From positions 7,305 to 71,304 of the forward strand of contig JBAZRI010000004.1 of assembly GCA_041662965.1 (NCBI GenBank): a stretch of 64,000 nucleotides of DNA, read 5' to 3'. This document shows, piece after piece, positions 3,960-64,000 of this stretch. Below the pieces are notes generated by a model. That model was not told where the DNA came from. It saw only the letters and a program-made list of their open reading frames with translations, and did no database searches. This DNA is from Patescibacteria group bacterium (GTDB taxonomy: Bacteria > Patescibacteriota > Patescibacteriia > Patescibacteriales > GWC2-42-12). The stretch's first letter is position 1. Every line of letters starts with the position of its first letter. The position numbers and the translations under genes were made by a program.

Positions 3960-4112
3960 GACCATCTCCTTCCATTTTTGAATTTTAATTTATTTTTAAA
4001 AAAGCTTTCCTTTATCTGAATAATATATTATACAAAACTATCGGAATTTGTCAATAAAAAATCCGCGAACTTACGCCCGCGGAATTAAGGTGAAACAAAA
4101 TTATTCAACTAT

Positions 4113-4928: not shown

Positions 4929-4984
4929 AATTGTTTCTCCCCCTTCTATTATATTATTTTGTCCCATTTTATTATAATTTATTT

Positions 4985-10812: not shown

Positions 10813-10914
10813 TAGTTGGCCTGAATTTGTAAAATTTTCGTGCGAGGACTGTTTGAGCTTCGCGGCAGCGAAGCGAGTTCCGCAGTAGAAAATTTTTTAA
10901 ATTCAGGCCAACTA
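10813..10914. ncRNA. Copy A of a ~100-nt conserved-core hairpin element (candidate structured RNA or mobile hairpin)
   Basis: Outer stem TAGTTGGCCTGAATTT/AAATTCAGGCCAACTA; invariant blocks AAATTTTCGTGCGAGGACTGTTTGAGC and GCGAGTTCCGCAGTAGAAAATTT; apical stem GCTTCGC-GGCA-GCGAAGC. Located in the atpB-atpE spacer. Confidence 0.6.
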
Positions 10915-30078: not shown

Positions 30079-30182
30079 TTGGCTCCGCGAATAATGGCAA
30101 ATTTTCGTGCGAGGACTGTTTGAGCCCGCCAGCGGGCGGGCGAGTTCCGCAGTAGAAAATTTGCTGTTATTCGCGGAGCCAA
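30079..30182. ncRNA. Copy B of the conserved-core hairpin element
   Basis: Outer stem TTGGCTCCGCGAATAA/TTATTCGCGGAGCCAA; same invariant blocks as copy A; apical stem GCCCGCC-AGCG-GGCGGGC. Confidence 0.6.
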
Positions 30183-34372: not shown

Positions 34373-35035
34373 TTATAAATCACTGTCGGCTTCCGAGGTA
34401 TTCAAGTCTTGTCCCATTTCCACTTTGCAGCTTTTTAAATCAGTCTTATAAGCATCAAAAACAGTTTTTACGCTTTCTTTATATTTATCTTTAGCTTCAT
34501 TTTTAGCCTTTCTATAAGCCGTAAAAGCATTAACCATGGCCTTGGTTCTCTCTTGTTTGTCGCTTATGGCTAAAGCCGCCACATAGGCGTTTTTTCTGGT
34601 TTCCATGGCCGTTTTTATGGCCGCGGTATAGGCGTCTAGAGCGCTGATAACCGCGTTATCTTTTTTTATTAAAGCTGCCTGAACGCAAGCGATCGCCTCG
34701 GCGGAAATTTCAGTAGAGGAAATAACATCATTCATTTTTTTATAGCCATAAAGAGAATTGCCCATTTTTCTGATTTTAGTGAAATTTTTGATTTCCGCCA
34801 GGTTGGGGATTTTTTCTTCCAGCTTGGCTATCATCGTTTTAATCATGCGATAGCCATAAAGCGCTTCGCCCATTTTTCTGATTTTAGTGAAATTTTTGAT
34901 CTCCGCCGGCGTGGAAATTTTTTCTTCCTGCGCGGAAATAGTAACCGCCTCGGCCGTGTCCTCGGCTTTAGTCGGCATAGCCGCGAAAGGCAAAACCAAC
35001 ATGGCCATAGTCAGAATAACTAAAACTTTTTTCAT
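34373..35035 (-). CDS. Secreted protein with 36-aa internal duplication
   Basis: Signal peptide; AEIKNFTKIRKMG.(A/S)LYGY occurs twice (DNA repeats 34742-34799 and 34850-34907). Confidence 0.75.
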   Translation of the reverse strand: MKKVLVILTMAMLVLPFAAMPTKAEDTAEAVTISAQEEKISTPAEIKNFTKIRKMGEALYGYRMIKTMIAKLEEKIPNLAEIKNFTKIRKMGNSLYGYKKMNDVISSTEISAEAIACVQAALIKKDNAVISALDAYTAAIKTAMETRKNAYVAALAISDKQERTKAMVNAFTAYRKAKNEAKDKYKESVKTVFDAYKTDLKSCKVEMGQDLNTSEADSDL

Positions 35036-35731: not shown

Positions 35732-35833
35732 AGGCTGGGTTATATTTAGAAAATTTTCGTGCGAGGACTGTTTGAGCCCCGCAGTAGCGGGGCGAGTTCC
35801 GCAGTAGAAAATTTACTAAATATAACCCAGCCT
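35732..35833. ncRNA. Copy C of the conserved-core hairpin element
   Basis: Outer stem AGGCTGGGTTATATTTAG/CTAAATATAACCCAGCCT; same invariant blocks as copy A; apical stem GCCCCGC-AGTA-GCGGGGC. Confidence 0.6.
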
Positions 35834-50170: not shown

Positions 50171-50303
50171 GGCTCCGATTTTACGCCGAAGTTCGAATTG
50201 AATTCAAAAAAAGGTTTTAAACTATTTTATATCAAGCTTTTAAAAGCGCCCCCAGCCCCCGCTTTTAAAAGCAAAATTTACCCGCGGGCAAAGCCCGGCT
50301 TTA
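50171..50303. repeat. Inverted repeat arm X (133 bp, perfect partner at 56188-56320)
   Basis: Base-by-base comparison found no mismatch. Starts with GGCTCC and contains the hairpin GCTTTTAAAAGCG-CCCCCAGCCCC-CGCTTTTAAAAGC. Confidence 0.95.
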
Positions 50304-50376
50304 GGCGATTTCAAGTTTTTCCGCGGGCAAAAGCCCGCTCCGCCCCGCTCCGGCGGGGCGATTTGGCGGCAAATTC

Positions 50377-50883
50377 TTACATGAGTAATTTTTTCAGGTC
50401 ATCATAAAAAGATTTACCCCATAAATATTTATCTCTATCACGAAGCGAGCTACCCGCTATGGCCATAACTTTTTTCAAATATTCTGCAAAATATAAATTA
50501 ACAGCATCTTTTTTGTACGATATATCTTTCTCCATGCCAATCTCATTTCTAACACGAATATCATATACAGTAAAAATATCCGGATATAAAACCGTTAAAA
50601 TAGCAGACGCCATCGGTAGCGCAAAACCATAATCAATCAAAATTTTTAATTTAACTTTATTCTCTTTTTCGTTAAATATTTGATTTGTAATCTTTTTAAC
50701 AGCAACGTCCAAATCACTATCGATGGTCTTAACCCTGTTTTTTATTTTACTTTTAGCACGGTTAGCTTTCCAAATAACAATGCAAAAAAATTCTTGCGCC
50801 GTTAAATAACCATGATTTAAAAAATTATCATGTACTTCACCAAAAATATACTTTTCTAAATCGTAATATTTACTATAATCCAT
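50377..50883 (-). CDS. Hypothetical protein, possible OGG-fold/HhH-like
   Basis: 168 aa, last gene of a 5-gene operon. The segment ALPMASAILTVLYPDIFTVYDIRV resembles the HhH element of OGG-fold proteins (from memory only). Confidence 0.7.
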   Translation of the reverse strand: MDYSKYYDLEKYIFGEVHDNFLNHGYLTAQEFFCIVIWKANRAKSKIKNRVKTIDSDLDVAVKKITNQIFNEKENKVKLKILIDYGFALPMASAILTVLYPDIFTVYDIRVRNEIGMEKDISYKKDAVNLYFAEYLKKVMAIAGSSLRDRDKYLWGKSFYDDLKKLLM

Positions 50884-50892
50884 GGTTTTATA

Positions 50893-52269
50893 TTATTTGA
50901 CAAAAAGGTCATCTAGCGTCTTTGCTTTTAATATATTTTCTAATTTTGTATATTTTGGTCCTTGTGGTTTTAAGTGACGATTTTTACCCAAACCAATACC
51001 ATGTGACAACTTTACAGGATTACCTTCCAAATATAATTTATATTTCCCCGTATTTTCAAATTGTTCAATACGATCAACCTTACCATAATAGGTAATTTGT
51101 GAAATAGGAGCGACCTGATATATCGCTATGTATTTTATGGATGATAATGTCTTTGGATTTAAACGCACTGCCCACCATGCTTTTTGTTCTAAAAACGCTC
51201 TCCTAAAACCATCCTCTTTTGCTGCACAAACTAAAGTATCCCATTTTGGCTTATAATCTCTGTCTCCAAGTTCTTTTTCTTTAATATCTTCATGTACAAT
51301 AATAGCGGGCTCAAATTGTTCTTCAATATTAAAGTCTTTTTTTCTTTTTATTCCGAATCTCCCCCTGTATTCGTCGTCTACTTCATCATAATGTTTCAAA
51401 ATAATAGCGGCCAAATCTTCGCCATCAATCAGTTTTATGGGAACCTTACCTGAAGCCTGCGCTTCTTCGGTAGCAGAAGAAGTGAATGAAGATAAAGTTA
51501 TAAAGCAACCATGTTCTTCTTGCTTTAGGGTACCCCTTAAAGCTAATATTTGTTGATTAGAAATAGATCCTCTTACTCTTTTGACCTGTATTCTCAAAAC
51601 TACATTTGCTAATCCTTCCGCATCTAAAATACCATTTACATCTATTCCACTGTCTCCAACATATTGGGTCGTCTCTGCGGTAAATCCAATAATTTCTAAT
51701 ATATGTTTTATAAATTCTTCAAATTCTCTACCATCTAAGTCGTATAGGCCATCGAGTATCAAGTCCCTTATTCTTTGCGGTTTATCGGCTGGTGTATATA
51801 TTTCTCCAGCGATTAATGCGTCTAATTCTTTAGCATATCTATCAAGGGAAAAAATGGTTAAAGTTGCACCAAGCGCATATGCTAAGTTGGTAGACATATC
51901 CTCTTTTAAAACAGTTTTTTGCCAGACCATTTTGCGGCGATGTTTATACTGGCAGGTACCTATTGGATTTTCCTCAAAGTAATAATCTCCTGCCACACCT
52001 ACCAAGTATTCACCCTTACCTTTTGGTGAGAGGATGGTATCCCCACTTTTCATCTCTAACCCAAAACGATGCAACTGGCCAGATTGAGCTGATATTTGCG
52101 AATCCGAGTACTCATAGCTGGTTTTTGTGAGTGCCTTTTTAATCGCATCTAAATTGCCTAACTTAGTCAGGTCAGACACCTCATTCCAGCCGACAGCAAT
52201 AAAATTATTCTTATAACCTTCTTCAACGTATTTTGAACCTTCGCCTATACGGACTAAATAGTATGACAT
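50893..52269 (-). CDS. Mrr-type restriction endonuclease core flanked by PUA/EVE/ASCH-like domains (type IV-like)
   Basis: REFEEFIKHILE..GDSGIDVNG..LRIQVKR matches a PD-(D/E)xK Mrr_cat core. N-terminal MSYYLVRIGEGSKY..FIAVGW; C-terminal WWAVRLNP..IAIYQV. Confidence 0.8.
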   Translation of the reverse strand: MSYYLVRIGEGSKYVEEGYKNNFIAVGWNEVSDLTKLGNLDAIKKALTKTSYEYSDSQISAQSGQLHRFGLEMKSGDTILSPKGKGEYLVGVAGDYYFEENPIGTCQYKHRRKMVWQKTVLKEDMSTNLAYALGATLTIFSLDRYAKELDALIAGEIYTPADKPQRIRDLILDGLYDLDGREFEEFIKHILEIIGFTAETTQYVGDSGIDVNGILDAEGLANVVLRIQVKRVRGSISNQQILALRGTLKQEEHGCFITLSSFTSSATEEAQASGKVPIKLIDGEDLAAIILKHYDEVDDEYRGRFGIKRKKDFNIEEQFEPAIIVHEDIKEKELGDRDYKPKWDTLVCAAKEDGFRRAFLEQKAWWAVRLNPKTLSSIKYIAIYQVAPISQITYYGKVDRIEQFENTGKYKLYLEGNPVKLSHGIGLGKNRHLKPQGPKYTKLENILKAKTLDDLFVK

Positions 52270-52291
52270 AATTTATGTTATTAAATTTTAT

Positions 52292-53002
52292 CTAGGAGCG
52301 ACGAGTGGCATGTTCATCCAAAAGTCGCATTAGTAAACTAGCAAGGGATAAATATTCAATAGTTTTAAGTGGATCGCTTTGTATAAAGTTAAGATGGGCT
52401 TTTTTATCTCTCACACCAACAATACCTTTAAAGAGATTCATTAATCCTCGCTGTTCAGTTTTATCGAGACTAGTTTGTAAGTCATTAAATTTAATTTTCG
52501 GCGTTTGATTATCGCAACCAAAAATATGGTTCATTAAATCATCACCATCAAATTCTTTCCCGTTGCTATTTTTAGGATGACCGGCCTTTATTTTAACCTG
52601 ATTTATCACCTCGACAAGTGCATTTTGAATTGCCTCTTTAAAGTATCCGTCTTCAAATTGATCAAAGGCAACTTTTTTCACCAACGGATGAAAGTCATAT
52701 CGTATAAAAAGTTCTGTTCTCTGCCCGGGTATGGATGTTATAGGATGTTTCTGAATATACTTCCATTTGCCAGACTCTTTAACGCGAATCAAAAAATTAC
52801 TGTTTTTAACTGCGCGCATCAACGCAACGCTAAGACTTGAAGATTTAAAATGATAACCTTTCGCAGCAAATCCACCAGAAATTTCAGAGAGCTCCCTGCT
52901 TGTAGAAAAAAATCCCTCTTGCCAAAGAGTCTTTAAAAGATTTGGTAAAGATATAAAATTTTTGCTTTTTTCTTTTTGCATAAGCTTTTTACTGTTCTCC
53001 AT
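52292..53002 (-). CDS. TIGR02391-like protein with N-terminal wHTH-like region
   Basis: FEDGYFKEAIQNALVEV...LMNLFKGIVGVRDKKAH...YLSLASLLMRLLDE. Confidence 0.7.
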   Translation of the reverse strand: MENSKKLMQKEKSKNFISLPNLLKTLWQEGFFSTSRELSEISGGFAAKGYHFKSSSLSVALMRAVKNSNFLIRVKESGKWKYIQKHPITSIPGQRTELFIRYDFHPLVKKVAFDQFEDGYFKEAIQNALVEVINQVKIKAGHPKNSNGKEFDGDDLMNHIFGCDNQTPKIKFNDLQTSLDKTEQRGLMNLFKGIVGVRDKKAHLNFIQSDPLKTIEYLSLASLLMRLLDEHATRRS

Positions 53003-53007
53003 CCAAG

Positions 53008-53223
53008 TTAAATCTGGTATTTATATATCTTATCCTCTTTTTTCCGTTTAATTTTCTCTCTTCTCAATAAAAAAAGTAAATTCACTCGGACTTCCTCAAG
53101 CCTTATGTTATATCCAAACGCGTCTTTAAGTTCTTTCTTTATTTCTTCCGCGGTCCTTAGTCTTTTATCAACTATTCTCATAATTTTTTCGGCAACGCTT
53201 ACTCTTTGTTTTTTCTTTTTCAT
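53008..53223 (-). CDS. Small basic protein (71 aa)
   Basis: Tightly packed in the operon (5-nt and 18-nt gaps). Confidence 0.55.
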   Translation of the reverse strand: MKKKKQRVSVAEKIMRIVDKRLRTAEEIKKELKDAFGYNIRLEEVRVNLLFLLRREKIKRKKEDKIYKYQI

Positions 53224-53241
53224 AAAAAATAATATTAAATA

Positions 53242-53613
53242 TTATTTCCCGTAGACCCATTTTCCGTCAACCTTTTTACGACCTAACAATTTTTTTTGAA
53301 CTAGCCCTATAACCACACCAGACAAAGTGGTGGTGGGATAAAGATAGCCGATCCTTTCCAGGGCCTCTGCAATTTCCCCAAGCGTTTTTGGTTTAGCAAA
53401 AAAATCATCCTCTCGTAATTCAATGATAAGATCGGAAGCTGCGCGCCTTTTATTTTCGTCCTTTTTTTTCTTAGTTTCCTCGGATACCTTTGTTTTTATT
53501 TGTTGGACGGCAGACATTCTGTCATAATCAGAAAGTATTCTCGCCAACTCCTCCTTAGTCCCCTCTATTGTTATAACAGATCCTGTTTTTGACTTAATAA
53601 CCGCTTTAGGCAT
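53242..53613 (-). CDS. Small protein with C-terminal winged-helix-like segment (123 aa)
   Basis: First gene of the operon; LGEIAEALERIGYLYPTTTLSGVVIGLVQKKLL. Confidence 0.6.
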   Translation of the reverse strand: MPKAVIKSKTGSVITIEGTKEELARILSDYDRMSAVQQIKTKVSEETKKKKDENKRRAASDLIIELREDDFFAKPKTLGEIAEALERIGYLYPTTTLSGVVIGLVQKKLLGRKKVDGKWVYGK

Positions 53614-53651
53614 ATTTTTTTTAAAATTAGTTACTTATTGCTACTATCCTT

Positions 53652-53680
53652 ATGGTATATTATTGTTATAACTTTGTCAA
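53652..53680 (-). promoter_or_regulatory. Candidate promoter of the 5-gene operon
   Basis: On the minus strand: TTGACA, 17-nt spacer, then TACCAT. Confidence 0.4.
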
Positions 53681-53757
53681 GCAGAAGACAGCTTTAGTTA
53701 ATAACTCTAAATTTCCGTCATAGATAGGCCTAATTGATCATTGTGGATAAATATATG

Positions 53758-53786
53758 TTGTTAAAAATAAGGTATCATAGTATAAT
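53758..53786 (+). promoter_or_regulatory. Promoter of the methyltransferase; predicts a leaderless mRNA
   Basis: TTGTTA, 17-nt spacer, TATAAT. The ATG begins 7 nt after the -10 box and has no SD. Confidence 0.5.
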
Positions 53787-53792
53787 ATATAC

Positions 53793-54887
53793 ATGCCTAA
53801 CAACCAAACTTTCAAAGCCATTTATTTTTCTGACCATAAAGAAATAAACCCAAATGCAAAGGGGGTTGTATTAGCTTTTGGAGAAAGAAATAAAGATTTG
53901 TATCAGAATATAGCCGACCTGGGTAGTAATGAATTGCGCAATTTACTCGGCACCGATTCCTATATCGAACTTGAACAGCGGGCTCAACAAGAAGGACTGC
54001 CGGTAAATACATATTGCCTTTGGTATTTGCGAAAAAATATTAATGTAGAAAAAAAGACGGATGTTAAAACAAACAAAAGTTGCCGAAAAACAATACACGA
54101 CTTAATAAATCAAGTAATTGAAGGGAATTGTTTAGAGGTGATGAAAAATTTTCCCGATAAATCAGTAGATATGATTTTATGCGATTTGCCTTACGGCACA
54201 ACGCAAAATCATTGGGATAGTATTATCCCCCTTGATCAACTATGGGCACATTACGAACGCATAATTAAAGATAACGGCGTTATTGCGCTTACGGGGCAAG
54301 GTTTGTTTACCGCAAATCTTATGTTGTCTAATCCTAAATTATTTAAGTACAAAATAACTTGGGTTAAATCAAAGCCGACAAATTTTTTAAACGCAAAAAA
54401 ACAGCCGCTACGTAAGCATGAGGATATTTGTATCTTTTACAAAAATCAACCTGCATATAACCCGCAGATGACTTACGGCGAGCCGTATAATAAAGGTTTT
54501 AGAAAAGATCAGTTGACCGGCAGTTATGGAGATTTTAAAACTGTTGAGGTTAAAAGTAATGGGGAAAGATACCCGACAGATGTTGTTTATTTCAAAACAG
54601 CCGAAAGTGAAGGAGAAGTCTATCACCCAACACAAAAACCGGTAGAACTTGGTCGCTACTTGGTTCGTACATTCACGAAAGAAGGTGATATTGTTTTGGA
54701 TAATACTTGTGGCAGCGGGAGTTTTTTAGTCTCCGCTGTTTTAGAGGGTAGAAAATTTATTGGGATTGAGAAAAACGAAGAGGTCTATCTGTTCAAAAAG
54801 CACGAGGTAGATTATATTGATATTTGCAAACAACGTATCAAAGAAGCTGAACGAAAATATAAAATAGAATCTAATAAACTATTCTAA
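53793..54887 (+). CDS. DNA methyltransferase, beta-class (N6-adenine or N4-cytosine)
   Basis: DLPYG (motif IV) precedes HPTQKP and DNTCGSGS (motif I). Confidence 0.88.
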   Translation: MPNNQTFKAIYFSDHKEINPNAKGVVLAFGERNKDLYQNIADLGSNELRNLLGTDSYIELEQRAQQEGLPVNTYCLWYLRKNINVEKKTDVKTNKSCRKTIHDLINQVIEGNCLEVMKNFPDKSVDMILCDLPYGTTQNHWDSIIPLDQLWAHYERIIKDNGVIALTGQGLFTANLMLSNPKLFKYKITWVKSKPTNFLNAKKQPLRKHEDICIFYKNQPAYNPQMTYGEPYNKGFRKDQLTGSYGDFKTVEVKSNGERYPTDVVYFKTAESEGEVYHPTQKPVELGRYLVRTFTKEGDIVLDNTCGSGSFLVSAVLEGRKFIGIEKNEEVYLFKKHEVDYIDICKQRIKEAERKYKIESNKLF

Positions 54888-55801
54888 ATTCCGCTATATG
54901 GCTCCTCTTGAAGAATTTGGCGCGCTTTTTCGATTTCAACATCGGTAACCGCGCCTTTTTCTTTTAGGTATTTTAATAAATGAAAATATTGGTTTGAATG
55001 TAAAATTGGTTTTACAATTTTTTCTAGCTTTGTATCATTTTTAACAAAGGTAAGATGTTTTTCAGTGAGAACACCACGACCGATAAGATCGTAAGTGATT
55101 CTCACCGCATCAACAGAGGTTAAATTAAGATCGCCTTTGTGTATTTTGTCTTTTTCTACATCTGCTGGCTCAATACTCAATAAATCTTCCACCTTCTCTA
55201 AACCATTCAAATTACGGTTATAGAGTTCGATTTCTTGCCCACGATATGTAAACCATGTTCGTCCTTGCTCTGTTAGTGAACCGCGTGGCAGATAAACGCC
55301 CTCATTAGAAACTCGCACTTTTGATACCCATCCGCATATATAAAGTATCCACTTTCTTTGTCGTTTAGTACCCGGAAGCACTCTATTGCTGGGAGTTTCT
55401 AAATGGGTCATTACATAAATATCTGCATCTAAATTCTCGTCATGAATTTGGCGAGCAAAAAAATTATGTTTTGCTTCTCTCGCAATTCCATCACTACTCT
55501 CATATTCTTCTTTAAAGGGAAGCGCGCCACCGCGACATTTCACATCAACTTTAACACCGGAAGGAAGTAAAAGGTCATACCCGAGAGGATGATTTTCTGG
55601 ATTGATTTCTGGCATTCCTAGCTTATTGCGGATAACCATCTCGGCAAGTGCGCCGAATCCTTGCTCTTCAGAACTTCCTCGTTCTGCGCCAGTTCGGTTT
55701 CGATTGGCAGCAATATATTCCGCTGCTTTTTGTCTCAAGCTAAAACCCCAATCATCAGTGAGTTTTAAAACTATCGGCTTTGGATGGTAATATTTATACA
55801 T
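54884..55801 (-). CDS. Putative type II restriction endonuclease
   Basis: PD-(D/E)xK-like GYD..(16)..VDVKC. Convergent with the methyltransferase, overlapping it by 4 bp, and preceded by a C gene. Confidence 0.65.
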   Translation of the reverse strand: MYKYYHPKPIVLKLTDDWGFSLRQKAAEYIAANRNRTGAERGSSEEQGFGALAEMVIRNKLGMPEINPENHPLGYDLLLPSGVKVDVKCRGGALPFKEEYESSDGIAREAKHNFFARQIHDENLDADIYVMTHLETPSNRVLPGTKRQRKWILYICGWVSKVRVSNEGVYLPRGSLTEQGRTWFTYRGQEIELYNRNLNGLEKVEDLLSIEPADVEKDKIHKGDLNLTSVDAVRITYDLIGRGVLTEKHLTFVKNDTKLEKIVKPILHSNQYFHLLKYLKEKGAVTDVEIEKARQILQEEPYSGI

Positions 55802-55803
55802 AA

Positions 55804-56025
55804 CTATTTTATGAAATAATTTAAATTTTTTTTATACAAACTCGCAAAGTGTTGTAATTCAATAATATCAATTCTCTGTTCTCCTTGTTCAACTTTTGAA
55901 ATATAAGACTGTGGCTTTTTAATTTTTTCAGCCACTACCTCTTGAGTTAAGCCAGATTCTATTCTGGCTTTTTTTAACTTTTCAGCAATTAGCTTATATT
56001 CATTTAAATATATTGCCTTAGTCAT
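55804..56025 (-). CDS. Controller (C) protein, XRE-family HTH
   Basis: 73 aa, LTQEVVAEKIKKPQSYISKVEQGEQRI, 2 nt upstream of the endonuclease gene. Confidence 0.8.
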   Translation of the reverse strand: MTKAIYLNEYKLIAEKLKKARIESGLTQEVVAEKIKKPQSYISKVEQGEQRIDIIELQHFASLYKKNLNYFIK

Positions 56026-56036
56026 ACTAATATGAT

Positions 56037-56060
56037 ATATTCAAATTAAGAATATTCAAA
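56037..56060. promoter_or_regulatory. Candidate C-box operator (two ATATTCAAA repeats 15 bp apart)
   Basis: Direct read of 56037-56045 and 56052-56060, just upstream of the C gene. Confidence 0.35.
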
Positions 56061-56187
56061 ATTAGAATAATTACAAAAGTCAAGGGGGTTAAGTCTACGA
56101 GAGTCGGATGTGCAAAAAAGAAAAGTTTGCTTTTGGCTTAAAATAAAGTTCGAGCCGATATTTTTTACAGGTTCTTTGGCAGTTTTT

Positions 56188-56320
56188 TAAAGCCGGGCTT
56201 TGCCCGCGGGTAAATTTTGCTTTTAAAAGCGGGGGCTGGGGGCGCTTTTAAAAGCTTGATATAAAATAGTTTAAAACCTTTTTTTGAATTCAATTCGAAC
56301 TTCGGCGTAAAATCGGAGCC
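56188..56320. repeat. Inverted repeat arm X' (partner of 50171-50303)
   Basis: Exact reverse complement of arm X. Confidence 0.95.
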
Positions 56321-56394
56321 ATGTCGCATATGCCTGCCTTCGGCAGGCAAGCGCCCACTCAAATTCAGCTAAAAATTCAAACTTTCCGCCTTGC
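56315..56394. repeat. Inverted repeat arm Y' (partner of 58430-58509)
   Basis: Exact reverse complement of the recombinase 3' coding end; overlaps X' on GGAGCC. Confidence 0.95.
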
Positions 56395-56509
56395 CCGAGC
56401 GAAAGCGAGGAAAGCCAAAGACAAACTTTTCTTTTTTCTTTCCAAAACAAAAAGACCGTTTTGAACATAAAGTTCATGGTCGGTCTTTTACCATTTGATG
56501 ATGCGGACA

Positions 56510-56941
56510 TTAATTCGCCGCCGTTTCCTTCGCCCAGCCGTTGGTCAGCATGTATTCCCTTGCCTTTTTGGGATCGGTGAATACGTTCTTGGCGAGCGAA
56601 ACAGCCTCTTTGCCTTCGGGCGTACTTTCATACAGCTTCTGGAACAGCGTTTTCTCATTGATCGTGAGCAGAAAACTTGTGAGCACGCTTTTGAAGCAAG
56701 CGATCATGAGCTCAAGCCTAACTGCCTGCGATTCGTTGAGATCGCCAACCTTGGCTATTTCCTCGGAAGCCCGGAAAAACTTCTGCATTGCGTCAAAAAC
56801 GTTCTTTGTGGTGCTTGTGTGCCCGTTGTTAACGTCATTCTGAAGAATGCCCTTGCCTTCTTTCAAAAGCTCCATAAACACGGTTCCGCCAAGAGATTCG
56901 TCTTCTGCCAGCATAAGCGCCACTTTTTGAATATCCATCAT
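56510..56941 (-). CDS. GC-rich orphan helical protein (143 aa)
   Basis: SD AAGGAGGA, consensus promoter, downstream terminator hairpin at ~56446-56483; ~48% GC. Confidence 0.65.
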   Translation of the reverse strand: MMDIQKVALMLAEDESLGGTVFMELLKEGKGILQNDVNNGHTSTTKNVFDAMQKFFRASEEIAKVGDLNESQAVRLELMIACFKSVLTSFLLTINEKTLFQKLYESTPEGKEAVSLAKNVFTDPKKAREYMLTNGWAKETAAN

Positions 56942-57003
56942 ATCCTCCTTTGCTCTTTAAAGTCTCTCGACTATTAGTTTGAAATGTTCAATTATATCGT
57001 ATA

Positions 57004-57032
57004 AATATAGCACACTTTTACATAATTGTCAA
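57004..57032 (-). promoter_or_regulatory. Sigma70-type promoter of the GC-rich ORF
   Basis: On the minus strand: TTGACA, 17-nt spacer, then TATATT preceded by TGC. Confidence 0.6.
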
Positions 57033-57071
57033 GAAAAAACAGCTAATTACAGCTATAATTAGCTAAAATAT

Positions 57072-58556
57072 ATGAAATACATCCTCTACGCCCGCAAATC
57101 AACCGATGAAGACGACAAACAAATTTTATCCATTGAATCCCAAGTGGCAGAATTAAAAGAATTTGCCGCCAAAGAAAAACTTGAAATCGCCGCCTCGCTC
57201 TGCGAGGCAAAAACTGCCAAAGAACCTGGCCGAATGAAATTCGGCGAAATGCTGACTTTAATTGAGCAAGGCAAAGCTGATGGCATACTCTCATGGCATC
57301 CGGATCGCTTAGCCCGTAATCCGATTGATGGCGGTAGAATTATTTATATGGTTGATACGGGCAAAATAAAATCTCTCAAATTCCCCTCTTTTTGGTTTGA
57401 GGACACACCGCAAGGAAAGTTTATGCTTAACATCGCTTTTGGGCAAAGCAAATATTTTATAGATAACCTTTCAGAAAACGTAAAACGAGGCTTAAGGCAG
57501 AAGCTAAGAAACGGCGTTTATCCTGGTTGGGCGCCGCTTGGCTATCTAAACGACTACAAAAACCATAATATAGTTATCCACACCGAAAAGCATAAACTTA
57601 TAAAAAGGATTTTTGAGCTCTACTCTGCCGGCGAATATACCTTGAAAAATTTAGCCGATAAATTTAATAATCTGGGGCTAACAAGCCACAACGGCAAAAA
57701 AGTAAGTCCGGGCATGATGTTGTTCATTTTAAAAAATCCTTTTTATTACGGCGTATTTAAATATAACGGCGAACTGCACGAAGGCAAGCACGAGCCAATT
57801 ATAACTAAGAAACTTTTTGACCAAGCGCAGGAAATGCTTAAAAAAAGAGGCCGGCACCATGAAAAGAAAATACACAATTATATTTTTACCGATTTTATGA
57901 AGTGCGGGACTTGCGGCTGTGCGATTACGGCCGAAAAGCACAAAGGCCATATTTATTATCGCTGTACCAAGAAAAAGGGTGTTTGCGCTGAAAAATATAT
58001 TAGAGAAAAACTATTAACCGACCAGCTTAAAAATATAATGCAAAAAGTTTCTTTGCCTGATGATTGGGCTGATAATATGCTCAATGAATTAAATAAAGAG
58101 AAAGCGACATCAGCCCAATCATCTATCGCCCTGGTTAATTCTTTAAATTTGGAAATTAAAGCGATTGAGAATAAACTTGATAATTTGCTTGATTATCATC
58201 TTGAGGGCGTAATTGATAAAAATGACTATTTAAGAAAGAAGGAGGAGCTAATCAACAAAAAGGTCGGCCTTGAGGAAAAAATCAAAAGAATTAACGATCA
58301 GGGCGATAATTGGCTCGAACCCATGAGAGATTTTATTTTGCGTTCAAGGTTAGCAAAAAAGACCGCCGACGAAGGCGATCTTTCCCAATTCAAAGCATTT
58401 CTAAAAAATATCGGCTCGAACTTTATTTTGCAAGGCGGAAAGTTTGAATTTTTAGCTGAATTTGAGTGGGCGCTTGCCTGCCGAAGGCAGGCATATGCGA
58501 CATGGCTCCCCAAAAAAAATTTCAGCGAACTTTTACCCTCGCCTTGCCGAATTTAA
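57072..58556 (+). CDS. Large serine recombinase (resolvase/invertase N-domain + recombinase domain + zinc ribbon + coiled coil)
   Basis: YARKSTDEDDKQILSIESQ catalytic N-terminus, DRLARN, CGTCGCAITAEKHKGHIYYRC. The last ~40 codons lie in repeats Y and Z, so the C-terminus is uncertain. Confidence 0.9.
   Translation: MKYILYARKSTDEDDKQILSIESQVAELKEFAAKEKLEIAASLCEAKTAKEPGRMKFGEMLTLIEQGKADGILSWHPDRLARNPIDGGRIIYMVDTGKIKSLKFPSFWFEDTPQGKFMLNIAFGQSKYFIDNLSENVKRGLRQKLRNGVYPGWAPLGYLNDYKNHNIVIHTEKHKLIKRIFELYSAGEYTLKNLADKFNNLGLTSHNGKKVSPGMMLFILKNPFYYGVFKYNGELHEGKHEPIITKKLFDQAQEMLKKRGRHHEKKIHNYIFTDFMKCGTCGCAITAEKHKGHIYYRCTKKKGVCAEKYIREKLLTDQLKNIMQKVSLPDDWADNMLNELNKEKATSAQSSIALVNSLNLEIKAIENKLDNLLDYHLEGVIDKNDYLRKKEELINKKVGLEEKIKRINDQGDNWLEPMRDFILRSRLAKKTADEGDLSQFKAFLKNIGSNFILQGGKFEFLAEFEWALACRRQAYATWLPKKNFSELLPSPCRI
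58430..58509. repeat. Inverted repeat arm Y
   Basis: Exact partner of 56315-56394; ends with GGCTCC. Confidence 0.95.
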
Positions 58557-58778
58557 TCCACAAAGCAAGGACTTGCCTGCCAAAGGCACGGCGCAAGCGA
58601 AAAGGAATTTAAAACAAAAAATTTAAAAGCGACAATCGGGGGCAAAGCCCACGCACCCCCAAAAAAGCGGGCGGGCAAAAAGGAAGGGGTTTAAGGGGAG
58701 GGAATTTTTGCCCGCCCGCTTGCCCGTCCGAAGCCGAAAGGCGTAGGAGGGCTTTTCCGCCCCGCCGTATTTTTTCGT
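58505..58778. repeat. Inverted repeat arm Z (274 bp, perfect partner at 63339-63612)
   Basis: Checked block by block with no mismatch. Rich in hairpins, e.g. GCGGGCGGGCAAAAA...TTTTTGCCCGCCCGC. Confidence 0.95.
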
Positions 58779-58881
58779 ATTCGCTTAATGCGAATACGCC
58801 GCCAATCAAAAAAATATGTTTACCTCGCCAACCTGCGCGTGCACAACATAATTATTACCTTTGTATAAATTTAAACATTTT

Positions 58882-60066
58882 TTATCTTTTTATCTTTAAC
58901 CAATAAGCCCCAAGCAAGGTAGCAATCGGCATTGACATAGCTACGCCGATACTACCGACCAATGTTCTGACGATTTCAGTGGCGATAATTTCATTATTGA
59001 TTACTTGGCTATAAGACAAAAATGGTTCTTGGTGAATTATAAACAAAAGCAATAATGGCAAGGAAACGCCAGCATAAGTTAAAAATAAAGTATTGACCAT
59101 TGTTCCCAGATGAGTATTACCCACCTTAAAAGCGGCTTTAAACACCTGGCTACTATCCATTTGCGGATTGGCTTCTTTAATTTGTTTTACCACCTCAATT
59201 TGGCTAACAATAACATCATCTAAAACACCGATGGCACCGATCAGCATGCCGGCTAATAATAAACCCTGAAAATTAATTGCATTCTTAGTTAAACCGATTA
59301 AATAAACTGTTTCATCTTGAGTCATGCCCGACAATCTGGTTAATTTTGTAAATAACACCGAGAAGATTAATGTAATAAATAAAGATATAAGGACACTCAA
59401 TACTGATAAATGTGATTTCTGCTTCCAGCCTTCGGTTAAATAAATCATTATAGTCAAGATAAAAAAGGCGCCGATAAGGCCAATATACAACGGGTTGCTT
59501 CCGTCTAATATTTTTGGCAGAATGAATTTAATGATAATAAAAAAACTAATAACTAAGCCTAGCAATGATTTTATCCCTTTCTTCCTGCCAATTAAAATAA
59601 TTATCGCGCAAAAAATGACTCCCAATAAATACAAATATCCTCGCCTAATAAAATCGGTAATATAATATTTTTCTTTGCCCTCAATGTCTGTAGATTTCTG
59701 CACCAGGACTTTATCGCCCACTTTATATATTCCGGCGCTGGCTACTTCAATATCGGAAATTCCTTCAAATTTTATTTCTTTATCTTTCCATTTTCCGTTT
59801 AAGCCTTTTAATAATAAATTCTGCTGGGTCGCTTTAGAGCCATCTTCCCGGTTAATTTCTTTTTGGTCTAAAATTTTTATTACTTTCGCTTCAAAAGTTT
59901 CTTCAGTGCTTGACAGTGGCGTGTCTTGTTCCGGCGGCATGGTTTCTTCTAAAATATTTTCTTCGTTATAATTTTCTGTTTCGTTGTTTTGAGCATAAGA
60001 AAAATTAGGAGTAAAAAAAACCACGCTAAATAAAATTATCAAGTACAGAAAAAAATATTTTTTCAT
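58882..60066 (-). CDS. YibE/F family membrane protein
   Basis: Signal peptide, extracellular N-domain and ~7 TM helices; GAIGVLDDVIVSQ motif. Confidence 0.7.
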   Translation of the reverse strand: MKKYFFLYLIILFSVVFFTPNFSYAQNNETENYNEENILEETMPPEQDTPLSSTEETFEAKVIKILDQKEINREDGSKATQQNLLLKGLNGKWKDKEIKFEGISDIEVASAGIYKVGDKVLVQKSTDIEGKEKYYITDFIRRGYLYLLGVIFCAIIILIGRKKGIKSLLGLVISFFIIIKFILPKILDGSNPLYIGLIGAFFILTIMIYLTEGWKQKSHLSVLSVLISLFITLIFSVLFTKLTRLSGMTQDETVYLIGLTKNAINFQGLLLAGMLIGAIGVLDDVIVSQIEVVKQIKEANPQMDSSQVFKAAFKVGNTHLGTMVNTLFLTYAGVSLPLLLLFIIHQEPFLSYSQVINNEIIATEIVRTLVGSIGVAMSMPIATLLGAYWLKIKR

Positions 60067-60075
60067 AATTAAAAC

Positions 60076-60483
60076 TTAGTCATCTAAACACATTGATTTT
60101 TTTGAGATTGTCCCCATAATTATTTGTTTAACACAGCCGGTTGGAAAATTATTTGCATAACATGTTCCGACTATATTATTTATAGGTTTATTGGCAAGTG
60201 TTGTTTTTTGTTCTTCGGTTAATACTGGCGGAAAACACACTCCGCTTTCGCATTGAGCTCCATCAGTACATATTTCACCAGCCTTTTTATCAGATAAAAG
60301 ACAATTCTTTTGATTATCAGACCATTCCCCGCCAGCACTTTCGCAAAATTGTTTATTTTTTTGCGGATGATGTTCAGGCAATGATGAATAATAAAAACCT
60401 AAAGCAATTCCCAATAAAATAACGGCTGCGAAGATTACAAAGATAATTATTATCTTTTTATTCGCGTATCTTAAAACTTTCAT
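60076..60483 (-). CDS. Anchored Cys-rich small protein
   Basis: 135 aa, N-terminal TM helix, 8 Cys residues. Confidence 0.6.
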   Translation of the reverse strand: MKVLRYANKKIIIIFVIFAAVILLGIALGFYYSSLPEHHPQKNKQFCESAGGEWSDNQKNCLLSDKKAGEICTDGAQCESGVCFPPVLTEEQKTTLANKPINNIVGTCYANNFPTGCVKQIIMGTISKKSMCLDD

Positions 60484-60487
60484 ATTT

Positions 60488-61249
60488 TTATTTCTTAGTT
60501 AATATTTTATTAGCGATTGATATTAAACTTTTGGTTATATTAGAATTATTATCCATAGCGAAAGGCTTGCCATTATCGCCGGAAATTACGATTTCCGAAT
60601 CTATCGGGATAGCTCCTAAAAATGGTATTTTATACTGCTTAGCAATTTTTGATCCGCCACCTTTTTTAAATAAATTTATTGTCTTGCCGCAATGCGGACA
60701 TTCCAGGCCGCTCATATTTTCAATTATACCATGAATTTTAAGTTTTAATTCTTTAGCAAAATTTATCGCTTTTTTTGAATCCAACAGTGATACATCTTGC
60801 GGAGTAGTAACTATAACCGCTCCGGACTTGGGCAATAGTTGAGCGATTGAAAGCGGTTCGTCGCCTGTGCCTGGCGGAGAATCAACTATCAGCCAGTCTA
60901 AATTTCCCCAGGTTACATCTTTAACAAATCTCTCAATAATTTTCATCTTAGCCGGGCCTCGCCAAATAATCGGGGCGTCTAATCTTGAAATGAAATAAGC
61001 CATTGAAACCAATGATAAATTTTTACTTATTTCTACTGGCAAAATTAGATTTTGGCCATAAGGAAAAACTGCCTTATCCTGCGCTCCAAGCATTAAGGCT
61101 AAGCTCGGGCCGTGGATATCGGCATCAAGCAAGCCAACTTTTAAACCTTTTTTCGCAAAAGTAATAGCTAAGTTAACAGCTACCGTTGATTTGCCCACGC
61201 CACCTTTGCCGGAAAAAACCAGCAAAGTATTTTTTATTTTATTTTCCAT
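60488..61249 (-). CDS. Mrp/NBP35 family ATP-binding Fe-S cluster carrier
   Basis: SGKGGVGKSTVAVNLA Walker A and the CPHCG motif. Confidence 0.88.
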   Translation of the reverse strand: MENKIKNTLLVFSGKGGVGKSTVAVNLAITFAKKGLKVGLLDADIHGPSLALMLGAQDKAVFPYGQNLILPVEISKNLSLVSMAYFISRLDAPIIWRGPAKMKIIERFVKDVTWGNLDWLIVDSPPGTGDEPLSIAQLLPKSGAVIVTTPQDVSLLDSKKAINFAKELKLKIHGIIENMSGLECPHCGKTINLFKKGGGSKIAKQYKIPFLGAIPIDSEIVISGDNGKPFAMDNNSNITKSLISIANKILTKK

Positions 61250-61252
61250 AAA

Positions 61253-61993
61253 TTAATGATCTAAAAATTTAACTATAAACATTAACAATATTCCTAAAAT
61301 AAATATTACATATGTTGCGGCTGATTTTTTTACATCTTTTTCGCCTCTTATTTCCGGAATGAGGTCGGAGGCGGCAATGTAGACGAATCCGCCGGCGGCA
61401 ATCGGTAAAATATATGGCAAAAAACCATCCAAGGACGAAAAGAAAAAATAACCGACAACGCCTCCTAGTATAACTGTTAAAGCTACTAAATAATTCACTA
61501 TCAAGGCTAACCTATATTTAAAACCGGCATGTATTAAAACTCCGAAGTCGCCCATTTCCTGCGGAATTTCATGCGCCGCTATTGCCAAGGTTGTTGCCAA
61601 TCCTAAATGTATATTAACCATAAAAGCGCCGGCAATAATCAATCCATCAATAAAATTATGAATACTGTCGCCCACTAAATTCATATAACCGAACGAATGT
61701 ATCGGGCAGTCTTCTTTATGGCAATGCCGCCAAAAAAGTAATTTCTCAATCAGGAAAAAACCGGCAAAGGAAATTAAAAAAATTATAAATAATAAATTTA
61801 TATCAATTTTTTCTGCCGCTTCCGGCATTAAATGCAAAAAAGCACCGCCCATCAGTGTGCCGGCAGAAAAGGCTACTAAAAATTTTACAATCTTACCTAG
61901 AAACTCTTTTTTAAAAAACATAAACAGGACGGCGACCCAAACACATAGGGTAATAAGAAAAGTAGAAAATACTATCGCTAAGAATGTAGGCAT
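61253..61993 (-). CDS. ZIP family metal (zinc) transporter
   Basis: HNFIDGL and HEIPQEMGDFGVL motifs. Confidence 0.85.
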   Translation of the reverse strand: MPTFLAIVFSTFLITLCVWVAVLFMFFKKEFLGKIVKFLVAFSAGTLMGGAFLHLMPEAAEKIDINLLFIIFLISFAGFFLIEKLLFWRHCHKEDCPIHSFGYMNLVGDSIHNFIDGLIIAGAFMVNIHLGLATTLAIAAHEIPQEMGDFGVLIHAGFKYRLALIVNYLVALTVILGGVVGYFFFSSLDGFLPYILPIAAGGFVYIAASDLIPEIRGEKDVKKSAATYVIFILGILLMFIVKFLDH

Positions 61994-61999
61994 AATTTT

Positions 62000-62293
62000 T
62001 TATTTTTTCTTAATTATTTTTATTGCCTTGCCGTTAACCAGAGCATCGGCGATTTTTTTATACGCTGAATAAAGTATCCTTTGATAGGTGCTTTGAGAAG
62101 TATGCATTTTTTCGGCCGCCTCTTGCTGTTCCATGTCGTTAATATGGCGCAAACGGTAGGCTTCCATTTCTTCAGTGGTAAGTTCTACAATTTCAAGCTC
62201 CCTCATAGGCACGCCTTGAGGTTTGAAATAAGTTATATTCGGATTAAAACTAATTTTTCTGCAAAGTCTTGGTCTAGACATATTATTTTTCAA
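62000..62293 (-). CDS. DUF134 (UPF0251) DNA-binding protein
   Basis: [18 protein letters not shown].......[11 protein letters not shown].......QEAAEKM..SQST. The start may instead be the internal Met (62281). Confidence 0.8.
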
Positions 62294-62828
62294 TAAAAAC
62301 TGCTACCGCAATTGCAGTAGTCCAAAGGCCTGTTTTATTTCCTTCCGCAGATTGGGTTATATTAGTTGTTTTAAAAATATAACCGGAGGCTTTATATACT
62401 TGCTCTCTTTCTTCCCATGCGGTATTAGAATTAAATTCAATTCCCATGGTTGTGGCCAACATTGTTGCCGCCAAATCTTCCGCATATTCTCCGGTTTTTT
62501 CTCTTTTTTCTCCAAAAGCATGATGCTCTGAAAGATAGCCATATTGTTTACCATCTTTAGGAATAGCTAGCCCGATAGACGCTGAGGTTAACCTGTTTGG
62601 TTCGTTACTTTCATTTCTCGCCATAACACAATAAGTTATTTCCCCCGGATTTAATAGTTTAATACCCTCGTCCTTTGATATCATTTTACAATTTGGAGGA
62701 AAAATAGAGGAAACACAAACTAAATTGCATTTTTCAATTCCAGCATTTCTCAAAGCCAATTCAAAACTTGCTAATTTATCCTTATGCACACCGACACCTT
62801 TTGTTAAAAAAACTTTTTTGGGAATCAT
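62283..62828 (-). CDS. pdaD: Pyruvoyl-dependent arginine decarboxylase
   Basis: [33 protein letters not shown], including the self-cleavage SS site. Confidence 0.85.
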
Positions 62829-62946
62829 ATATTTTCTAAATCACTATTTGCTTAATATTGAATAAATTTAATAACAATGCTATTATTTTGTTGAAAGAAG
62901 GCCACCCGGCCCCTTTTTACAAAGAGGCCGGTTCCCGCGCCTTCTT

Positions 62947-63183
62947 TTATTTTTGCTGGTCTTTTAAGGCTGTTTTTTCTTTTTTTACAGCTACTAATTC
63001 TTCTTCAAGTATTTTTTCTTCGTCTTCCAAAGCTGCTAGTTCATTTTTAGGAGAAATAAATCTCCTAAAACCGAAACCCCCACGGCAACCACGACCTAGT
63101 CTCATACCGCCCCCGCAAGGGCCTAGACCTCGGCCAGTTCCAGCGCCTTGTCCCATTGGACCAGTCCCATTTAATTTTGGCAT
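62947..63183 (-). CDS. DUF5320-like Gly-rich/coiled-coil small protein
   Basis: MPKLNGTGPMGQGAGTGRGLGPCGGG... with the SD AAGGGAGGTG. The track ORF start upstream overlaps the promoter. Confidence 0.75.
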   Translation of the reverse strand: MPKLNGTGPMGQGAGTGRGLGPCGGGMRLGRGCRGGFGFRRFISPKNELAALEDEEKILEEELVAVKKEKTALKDQQK

Positions 63184-63247
63184 AATTTTTTTCACCTCCC
63201 TTCTTAATTTTAATAGATAACTCGACCTTTGCCCGCTATCTATTATG

Positions 63248-63276
63248 AATATACACCCATAACATTTTATTGTCAA
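63248..63276 (-). promoter_or_regulatory. Promoter of the cassette-C operon
   Basis: On the minus strand: TTGACA (63271-63276), 17-nt spacer, TATATT (63248-63253). Confidence 0.55.
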
Positions 63277-63338
63277 TATTTTAAAAATTTAATAAAACAA
63301 TCATAGAAGTTTAGGCGGCGCGCTGGCGAATAGCCAGC

Positions 63339-63612
63339 ACGAAAAAATACGGCGGGGCGGAAAAGCCCTCCTACGCCTTTCGGCTTCGGACGGGCAAGCG
63401 GGCGGGCAAAAATTCCCTCCCCTTAAACCCCTTCCTTTTTGCCCGCCCGCTTTTTTGGGGGTGCGTGGGCTTTGCCCCCGATTGTCGCTTTTAAATTTTT
63501 TGTTTTAAATTCCTTTTCGCTTGCGCCGTGCCTTTGGCAGGCAAGTCCTTGCTTTGTGGATTAAATTCGGCAAGGCGAGGGTAAAAGTTCGCTGAAATTT
63601 TTTTTGGGGAGC
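63339..63612. repeat. Inverted repeat arm Z'
   Basis: Exact reverse complement of 58505-58778. Confidence 0.95.
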
Positions 63613-63838
63613 ATTGCTTAATGGAACGAACTCATCTCCAGTATTCCGCCTTAAGGCAGAAAAATTTTTAGACAGGTTTAAAGCCCCGCCCCGCACTTCG
63701 GGGGCGGGGCTTTGCATTTGAAGCGAATTAAAAAGATTTTTCCCTAAAACAAAAGAAATTTTAATGCTTTCGGGCGAATAGGTTATTTTTTGTTTTGAGG
63801 GCGGTATCAATTTTTTCTTTTTCTTTTTTTCAAATATT

Positions 63839-63975
63839 TGGTATAATAGGAGCGAACCCAATCCATACGCTCCGCGATTTTTTATTATAACTTAATTGTT
63901 GTAATACCAAAGGGGCAACTCCTGTCAATTTCGCGAAAGCGGGATTGGGTTCGCAGGGTTGCCCCTTTGGTTTTA
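63839..63975 (+). promoter_or_regulatory. Extended -10 promoter plus ~125-nt leader with mutually exclusive 13-bp helices (candidate attenuator, riboswitch or small RNA)
   Basis: TGgTATAAT at 63839-63847. P1 is GGAGCG/CGCTCC plus a U-run. Helix A pairs 63852-63864 with 63942-63954; helix B pairs 63907-63919 with 63958-63970 and is followed by UUUU. An ATG lies at 63981. Confidence 0.5.
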
Positions 63976-64000
63976 AAAATATGAATTATAAAAATTGCGC

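Follow-up and report, generated by a model that had tools for sequence, protein, structure and literature searches.

Two probable tandem large serine recombinase elements with mirrored attachment-site arms in a Patescibacteria group bacterium

The 64-kb window analysed here (64,000 nucleotides, nt; positions 7,305 to 71,304 of contig JBAZRI010000004.1, Patescibacteria group bacterium assembly GCA_041662965.1) ends in a block of perfect inverted repeats and cargo genes around the gene of a large serine recombinase (LSR). With a probability of roughly 0.7 we read this block as two LSR integrative elements in tandem, each with a mirrored copy of its own attachment site attP as a likely cis site, kept identical by copying. 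Element 1 runs from the left flank W through arm X, cargo A, the mirrored arms X' and Y' and the open reading frame (ORF) ORF143 to the recombinase gene LSR1, which ends in arm Y. Element 2 begins with arm Z and continues through cargo C, arm Z', a spacer, the V arm and a second recombinase gene, LSR2, running off the window. An earlier reading, made from the letters alone, had offered either a shufflon-like multi-segment inversion module or a stack of serine-recombinase site products. The second proposal is essentially right, in that the arms are of attP type and belong to two tandem LSR elements, with the GGCTCC junctions as putative crossover cores. The first is not supported, as segment orientation is fixed across loci and the 494-amino-acid enzyme is an LSR with attP/attB-type half-sites.

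The three inverted pairs are exact (coordinates of arms, patches and modules are those of the plus strand). X (50171-50303) is the reverse complement of X' (56188-56320) over 133 nt, Y (58430-58509) that of Y' (56315-56394) over 80 nt and Z (58505-58778) that of Z' (63339-63612) over 274 nt, all at 100% identity; they bound cassette A (X to X'), cassette B (Y' to Y) and cassette C (Z to Z'). Neighbouring arms abut with a few bases in common, X' and Y' overlapping in GGAGCC and Y and Z in GCTCC, and X opens with GGCTCC (50171-50176). Pairs and overlaps had both been called correctly from the sequence alone; the view that the arms are non-coding was wrong for Y, which encodes the conserved C-terminal ~26 residues of LSR1. 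The inner ends of Z do carry, as that reading had it, unlike hairpins of the same size (58779-58797, ATTCGCTTAATGCGAAT; 63320-63338, GCTGGCGAATAGCCAGC), each followed by a common CGCCGCC, and it is solely through this CGCCGCC that the Z pair can be aligned to 299 nt at 96%; the ends look as if a hairpin module had been swapped. There are no further copies of X, Y or Z in the remaining 50 kb of the window, and the longest other exact repeat in its 64 kb is 33 nt.

The X'–Y', Y–Z and W–X junctions recur in assemblies made independently. In the MEGAHIT assembly ERZ27249449 (ENA), contig k141_199058 corresponds to window 50284-58778 and spans both X'–Y' and Y–Z, contig k141_779810 spans W–X, and contig k141_1660615 comprises cassette C with 141 nt of Z on either end, each 100% identical to the window. 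The JGI contig Ga0172379_10097142 equals window 56198-58492 at 100% identity, and two Logan contigs from other runs, likewise 100% identical, end 30 nt inside X, which is expected from k=31. Because Z is 274 nt long, the orientation of cassette C is unresolvable at k=141 and is that given by the window's own assembler. The contigs k141_779810 and k141_199058 overlap by exactly the 141-mer 50284-50424, a branch node that implies a coexisting variant diverging at 50283 or 50425, possibly with other cargo behind the same arm. We do not take this node as evidence of inversion: its position misfits inversion at X, and a cargo variant from 50425 is more likely.

LSR1 (57072-58556, plus strand, 494 amino acids) has the Resolvase, Recombinase and Zn_ribbon_recom domains (PF00239, PF07508 and PF13408), all above cut-offs, and a homologue of LSR2 has the same set. 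Its reading frame passes through Y and stops inside Z, as had been noted before; Y supplies the last ~26 conserved codons and Z the final 16. In an alignment of 17 members of the LSR1 family the Y-encoded peptide (..QGKKFEFLAEFEW.LA....A.PNW) is conserved, and the sequences diverge directly past W-L, encoded by TGGCTC. Several of the C-terminal tails beyond this point read like antisense transfer RNA (tRNA) genes, and the tail is read from X, Z or a tRNA, depending on the state of the element; codon-position conservation for the start of X as coding tail of a circle-form recombinase is mixed. LSR1 has 7,891 homologues at E ≤ 1e-20, the named ones mostly from Patescibacteria. The annotated phage and plasmid collections contain no LSR with more than 28% identity to it, IMG/VR contains distant LSRs only (at most 47% identity) with no virus link, and there is nothing on record for the 94%-identical cluster representative P0001.

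Equivalent arms do stand beside homologous recombinases in related genomes, a search that had been proposed from the window alone. Using scripts, we analysed 80 homologous loci from GTDB genomes together with locus L006, and found a recurring plan at about 50 homologous LSR loci, mostly of Patescibacteria. From left to right it consists of a flank B joined to X, the short patches r2'r1', cargo, the segments a, r5' and r3', X' joined to Y', a linker, a', the LSR gene (containing r1r2, g and r3 and ending in r5 and Y) and an antisense tRNA gene. Y' and Y pair over at least 70 nt at 50 loci, 39 of which have no mismatch in 70 nt; a distal copy of X (73-145 nt), lying 0.8-8 kb upstream of the recombinase, is found at 30 loci and is perfect in 19 of the 30. 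Cargo amounts to 0.8-8 kb of unrelated genes, mostly on the strand opposite to the LSR, and loci that share arms carry wholly different cargo; the minimal elements consist of the LSR and one variable gene, sometimes of XRE-type helix-turn-helix (HTH) kind. Beyond the core, the sequence outside distal X is unrelated between loci. This architecture appears in assemblies made by different assemblers and in an isolate genome, and many homologous contigs break at these repeats. As a negative control we took 30 phage-type LSR loci, one of which has a weak inverted repeat flanking the gene.

In the window, the module upstream of LSR1 (56114-56437) is 324 nt long and tiled without gap by a (56114-56139), r5' (56140-56167), r3' (56168-56187), X', Y', a 17-nt linker and a' (56412-56437), with a predicted closing stem of a and a' and a fold z of -3.1. 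Modules are tiled in the same way in L006 and about 24 other loci. The gap between module and ATG is ~35-60 nt in most loci and 530-680 nt only in the window, L010 and L011. We considered a small protein on the reverse strand of the module that would share the recombinase tail, and rejected it, as most loci lack a start codon upstream of Y there.

Attachment-site assignments come from what follows the gene in the relatives. ARAGORN was run on 31 loci, and in 25 of them a minus-strand tRNA (for Ser, Gln, Trp, Asn, Ala, Glu, Phe or Leu) begins precisely where the recombinase gene stops; the tRNA gene thus placed converges on the recombinase gene, and in most relatives the insertion is at its extreme 3' (CCA) end. 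The junction core (TGGCGG, TGGCTG or TGGCTCC, for example) reads on the opposite strand as 1-3 acceptor bases, the discriminator and CCA, and 5-8 nt of it are common to the B–X, X'–Y' and Y–tRNA junctions. When numbering is tied to the T of TGG (CCA on the opposite strand), a CGAAC motif starts at position 20 in 17 of 29 tRNA flanks and corresponds there to the T-loop; in 25 of 41 X flanks it starts at position 25. In attB half-sites of LSRs the outer motif lies about 5 bp nearer the centre than in attP half-sites (PMC11722253); the two offsets taken with this rule make X a P'-type arm and the tRNA the B' half-site. On these motif distances Y–X would be attP, W–X (50171) attL and X'–Y' a complete attP in inverted form, lying directly before the recombinase gene. 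A GCGAAC motif is present in Z at the attP-type distance and in another reading frame than in X, which argues that the motif is a DNA signal, and Z too appears to be a P'-type arm. Arms that are nearly identical (L024-L027) are found in genomes labelled Patescibacteria, Thermodesulfovibrio and Schleiferia (the last an isolate), beside different tRNA genes, suggesting that the element is mobile and not restricted to one host group.

We propose the following mechanism. Y, the last ~26 codons of LSR1, would serve as the P arm and X as the P' arm, so that the excised circle would carry attP as Y–X, with the junction hexamer as the common crossover core. Integration would leave an attR (Y–tRNA) that keeps a whole B'-type half-site, which makes its reuse as a target plausible; element 2 may have inserted at the attR of element 1, leaving Z abutting Y. 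The inverted pairs would then exist because each element has an inverted full attP copy (X'–Y', or Z' with the V arm) immediately upstream of its recombinase gene, one half of this copy pairing with attL and the other with the 3' end of the gene. We think the mirrored copy most likely a cis-acting recombinase site and not an inversion switch. It may serve autoregulation and insulate the gene from read-through, or be a partner in architecture or directionality for elements without an obvious directionality factor, or do both. Gene conversion or a similar copying of DNA would keep it identical to the working arms.

Arm identity has a median of 100% within a locus and 56% between loci, a pattern of concerted evolution. 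Gene conversion or other copying, invoked earlier to account for the zero mismatches in the window, is thereby supported at the level of the family. The 32 arm mismatches have no G.U bias, which places the copying at the DNA level and led us to reject RNA-level selection on the arms.

Tandem stacking is seen beyond the window. The second LSR gene starts at 63981 (63981-64000 on the plus strand, beginning MNYKNC..., cut by the window end) and matches the start of the LSR at 3902-5380 of LCCP01000005 (L008), a contig of Parcubacteria GW2011_GWC2_42_12; this 493-aa homologue is 26% identical to LSR1. It lies between inverted arms of 152 nt and 94% identity (3560-3711 and 5172-5323), of which the left corresponds to window 63644-63791, the V arm and upstream inverted-repeat arm of the second recombinase gene, and the right ends at the core and abuts the X of the next element. 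The order on that contig is LSR, Y–Z, cargo, Z' with V arm, LSR2, arm–X, cargo, X'–Y' and LSR, which makes at least three elements in series, and the cargo between its homologous Z arms is unrelated to cargo C of the window. Z-type sequence also follows the recombinase in L006 and L039, and L039 has a Z/Z' pair (238 nt, 87%). At L024 two cassettes precede one recombinase, and between them lie 62 nt left over from the 3' end of a recombinase gene, an indication of an older, decayed member of an array. By this arrangement of their parts, L024 and LCCP01000005 appear to be tandem arrays like that of the window. That a second LSR family, only 26% identical to LSR1, shares both the arm architecture and the GCTCC core indicates that the plan is not confined to one recombinase family.

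Arm and gene are tied together further by short exact patches, which are inverted copies of stretches of the recombinase gene. The earlier reading had reported one, an inverted repeat of the gene's 3' end beyond X'; it is present, at 28 and not 27 nt (r5', 56140-56167, the reverse complement of r5, 58402-58429). In addition, r3' (56168-56187) is the reverse complement of r3 (57209-57228), r2' (50304-50321) of 57174-57191 and r1' (50362-50378) of 57157-57173, with a 40-nt GC hairpin insert (50322-50361) between r2' and r1'. In recombinase coordinates, r2'r1' corresponds to inverted nt 86-120 and r3' to inverted nt 138-157 in the window, and to about 84-120 and 137-156 family-wide. The first abuts the inner end of X and the second the inner end of X', exactly in both cases; r2'r1' is contiguous or hairpin-split in 27 of 30 loci, and the patches track the gene variants of their own locus. 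Inside the coding region, r1r2 (57157-57191) and r3 flank g (57192-57208), a 17-nt hairpin GCCTCGC-TCT-GCGAGGC. About 55 of 79 homologues keep g as a perfect palindrome of 6-7 bp: substitutions on one side are compensated on the other, and the encoded residues change with them (ASLCEA, ASFQEA, ASFEEA, DSLCES and others); and in a subfamily without g the patches are also absent and the arms longer.

The arms themselves are hairpin-rich (fold z about -3). At the centre of the X- and Z-type arms, at 50236-50272 and at 58665-58721 and 63396-63452, stands a long hairpin whose loop is rich in C (CCCCCAGCCCCC; TTCCCTCCCCTTAAACCCCTTCC); it is also found in L019-L031, L043, L049 and L051, with stems that vary by locus and a loop that is reverse-complemented in some arms. 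Compensatory pairs in the internal arm hairpins are few, in an alignment that is highly divergent. On one strand, the pairings of X with X', r2'r1' with r1r2, g with itself and r3 with r3' would make a gap-free four-way junction. A tentative extension, to which we give well under even odds, is that the mirrored attP copy, the patches and the g hairpin form one nucleic-acid device, in which a folded strand (single-stranded DNA, ssDNA, or the long transcript of the LSR) would rebuild a double-stranded attP with a four-way junction. With it the element would sense or control its integrated versus free state, as a substitute for a directionality factor encoded in DNA or RNA. Its target, the conserved T-arm/CCA end of tRNA genes, would leave such an element independent of any single host.

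Comparison between sequences is what supports the arm identities, the position of the core, the use of tRNA ends as targets by relatives, the stacking in tandem, the concerted evolution and the fixed orientation. Several points weigh against the tandem-element interpretation. An attR as target is non-canonical for LSRs. There is no tRNA gene in the 64-kb window; the tRNA-type target of the array is taken from relatives, and the array runs past the window end. The left half-sites (Y and W) have no recognisable motif, the attP/attB assignment being read from the right half-sites only. An exact search of JGI metagenomes gave 0 matches to the W–core junction, as an empty or alternative site, and the search for the Y–X circle junction gave only relatives' modules and a same-strain contig, with no excised circle. 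A regulatory or architectural role alone does not explain why 80-260 nt are identical with sharp conserved inner boundaries, why gene patches of 20-37 nt abut the arms exactly, or why a hairpin in the coding region covaries. Finally, locus L066, in a Bacteroidota metagenome-assembled genome (MAG; JAZDMK010000009, 9123-10835), has its recombinase unit bounded by a tRNA-Ala in sense orientation on one side and by an inverted tRNA-Ala-like sequence on the other, with no X'. This single departure from the arrangement with the tRNA after the gene suggests that the mirrored attP copy can sometimes recombine, and would fit its recombination with a second tRNA gene, inverting a segment of the chromosome.

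L066, with its recombinase unit between two tRNA-like ends, is also among the observations that would favour a shufflon-like switch, in which the recombinase flips cassettes A, B and C and so changes expression or its own C-terminal tail. Inverted arms with the core at their outer ends are likewise the arrangement of P1 cin/cix, the LSR1 reading frame continues through Y, so that flipping B would swap its tail, and assembly at k=141 leaves the orientation of C undetermined. Free inversion, however, would give both orientations, and all informative loci have one: r3' adjoins X'–Y' in 24 loci and r2'r1' adjoins distal X in 27 of 30, the reverse arrangement being found in none in either case, and the tRNA follows the gene in 25. 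Of four possible integrated arrangements a single one is observed, which also led us to reject flipping of the 2-micron kind and integration via either attP copy. In addition, the k=141 MEGAHIT contigs span X and Y in a single orientation, the cargo operons have promoter-like sites within the cassettes and all genes lie inside, so that only the last codons of the LSR would change, and the enzyme is an LSR with attP/attB-type sites and not a ~190-aa invertase with a C-terminal HTH. We regard such a switch as unlikely, although rare flips could still show at the read level.

Fixed orientation and sharp arm boundaries would be explained by a second reading, which we consider just as improbable. 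Here each repeat-bounded segment would be its own circle with a palindromic site (X'–X, Y–Y' or Z'–Z), the circles being stitched serially as in an integron. The idea accounts for the chains of abutting pairs in the window and in LCCP01000005 and for the exchange of cargo between conserved arms, and it offers a route to homogenisation, the arms being a contiguous palindrome in the circle. It needs a palindromic central dinucleotide, for example GC in TG-GC-TCC, and GC is present in the common core, but no cassette circle has been seen. Moreover, recombination of an attP-type with an attP-type site is not an LSR reaction, and the 62-nt recombinase remnant between the cassettes of L024 points to decayed tandem full elements.

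The exact abutment of the patches invites a third explanation, a single-stranded intermediate (ssDNA or a long transcript) in which Y–X pairs with X'–Y' into a double-stranded attP while the patches and g lock a four-way junction. In its favour, the four pairings named above meet without unpaired bases, the g hairpin covaries, the arms are rich in hairpins and their identity is maintained at the DNA level. Against it, minimal elements have no rolling-circle, relaxase or other ssDNA-handling genes, and the pairings of r5 with r5' and of a with a' would on geometry be incompatible with a simultaneous 213-bp duplex. Besides, if a serine recombinase acted on such a folded circle, the chromosome would be linearised unless a dimer were later resolved. 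We consider this more doubtful than the two preceding explanations. Least credible of all is an assembly artefact or a set of genome-wide intergenic repeats unrelated to the recombinase, both of which the sequence-only reading had listed as findings that would overturn it: chimeric assembly can yield perfect inverted repeats, and homologous contigs often break here, yet the junctions are identical in MEGAHIT, Logan and JGI assemblies, the architecture recurs with other assemblers and in an isolate genome, and the arms, which have no other copies in the window, always flank or abut an LSR gene and are missing from the phage-type controls.

The remaining features of the two elements are their cargo and the parts around LSR2. 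Cargo A (50377-56025, minus strand; Pfam and PADLOC) comprises ORF168, a PDC-S02/Mrr-like nuclease, a Hypoth_Ymh/HEPN-like protein, two small ORFs, ORF305, which is probably a restriction enzyme, and a C-protein-like HTH protein, together with a type II N4/N6 methyltransferase on the plus strand; from this gene content cassette A appears to be a defence island. ORF143 (56510-56941, minus strand) is GC-rich, a lineage-specific insertion between the module and the LSR1 gene that only this lineage and L010 and L011 have, and it belongs to no assigned family, with no match in Pfam, PADLOC or PHROGs; a near-consensus promoter (TTGACA-17-TATATT) lies before it at about 57003-57031. Cargo C (58882-63276, minus strand) is by Pfam a metal/polyamine operon of DUF5320, a pyruvoyl arginine decarboxylase, DUF134, a ZIP transporter, an Mrp/NUBPL ATPase, ORF135 and YibE/F. 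In the module of element 2 the inverted arm of P' type is Z', which is kept together with the V sequence in LCCP01000005, and a 31-nt spacer with the motif GGAACGAAC (63613-63643) precedes the V arm. Just upstream of the LSR2 gene a 28-nt inverted repeat (63892-63985; caaaggggcaac ... gttgcccctttgg) forms a hairpin that is conserved in LCCP01000005.

No Rfam family was found in the window, and the arms have no match at the gathering threshold or at E ≤ 1. Elsewhere in the window, three copies of an intergenic element of ~100 nt (10813-10914, 30079-30182 and 35732-35833) have two invariant cores, AAAATTTTCGTGCGAGGACTGTTTGAGC and GCGAGTTCCGCAGTAGAAAATTT, and an inner GC hairpin and an outer stem of 16-18 bp that vary between copies with pairing kept. 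The element, too, has no Rfam match and looks like an undescribed structured RNA or repeat. The 33-nt exact repeat mentioned above is direct (34760-34792 and 34868-34900, 108 nt apart) and lies in or beside an ORF at 34373-35035.

LSR integrative elements are known, and the mirrored-attP plan goes beyond current LSR models in several features; we found no description of the architecture in the literature searched. The LSR integrases (phiC31, Bxb1, A118, SPbeta SprA, TnpX/TndX and CcrAB) have the same Resolvase, Recombinase and zinc ribbon set, likewise use a short common core, have the outer P' motif ~5 bp further out than that of B', and have their gene at the element end. The elements described here differ in that the integrase gene and attP overlap at the 3' end of the gene, insertion is at the CCA end of a tRNA gene, an inverted full attP copy lies upstream of the gene and attR appears reusable as a target; they have no conserved candidate directionality factor, and identity to the phage and plasmid collections is at most 28%.

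Serine DNA invertases, such as those of the Gin/G and Cin/C segments (the latter with inverted repeats of 0.6 kb), Hin and the Min system of p15B, are enzymes of ~190 aa whose segments occur in both orientations, switching the 3' ends of genes or promoters. There too inverted repeats bound the segment, with crossover at their outer ends and the recombinase gene adjacent; the 5' part of the invertase coding sequence contains an enhancer, and the corresponding part of the LSR gene here contains a conserved nucleic-acid element. In contrast, the enzyme of the window is a 494-aa LSR, the orientation is fixed and the cargo self-contained. The R64 shufflon uses the tyrosine recombinase Rci and 19-bp sfx sites to make alternative pilV C-termini, with many isomers coexisting. 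It shares with the window several inverted sites that bound adjacent segments; its enzyme, pilV ends and isomers are not seen here.

The yeast 2-micron plasmid, in which the tyrosine recombinase FLP acts on FRT sites within 599-bp inverted repeats, occurs as two equally abundant isomers and amplifies its copy number. The predicted excised circle resembles it in having two unique arcs, one with the recombinase, split by perfect inverted repeats that hold the site of that recombinase, but only one arrangement is seen here, and minimal elements carry no replication genes. In elements with attP inside a gene, such as those with SSV1-type integrases and the mycobacteriophages with integration-dependent immunity, the gene that bears attP receives another 3' end on integration, as here; in the LSR elements, only the last 10-25 codons change. 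Islands that target tRNA genes, including tycheposons, share with our elements the integration at tRNA 3' ends, the variable defence and metabolic cargo and the tandem accretion beside a tRNA. Tycheposons have tyrosine integrases in 910 of 937 cases (tycheposon preprint). Direct repeats of the tRNA end mark the borders of these islands, and a mirrored internal attP has not been described for them.

The plan defines a widespread and hitherto unrecognised class of element, with dozens of loci in Patescibacteria and other phyla, defence or metabolic cargo, stacking at tRNA genes and a tendency to break assemblies. A T-arm/CCA end of a tRNA is an unusual target for an LSR, relevant to integrases with conserved and ubiquitous landing sites, and its recognition by these recombinases would account for near-identical elements in three phyla. 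Such islands can be delimited precisely in MAGs by their signature: an LSR gene enclosed by two inverted pairs that abut, with the 3' end of the gene forming the right arm of one of them. In the directionality and regulation of LSRs we know of no counterpart for the mirrored attP copy that is kept base-perfect, for the patches of the gene next to the arms or for the covarying hairpin in the coding region.

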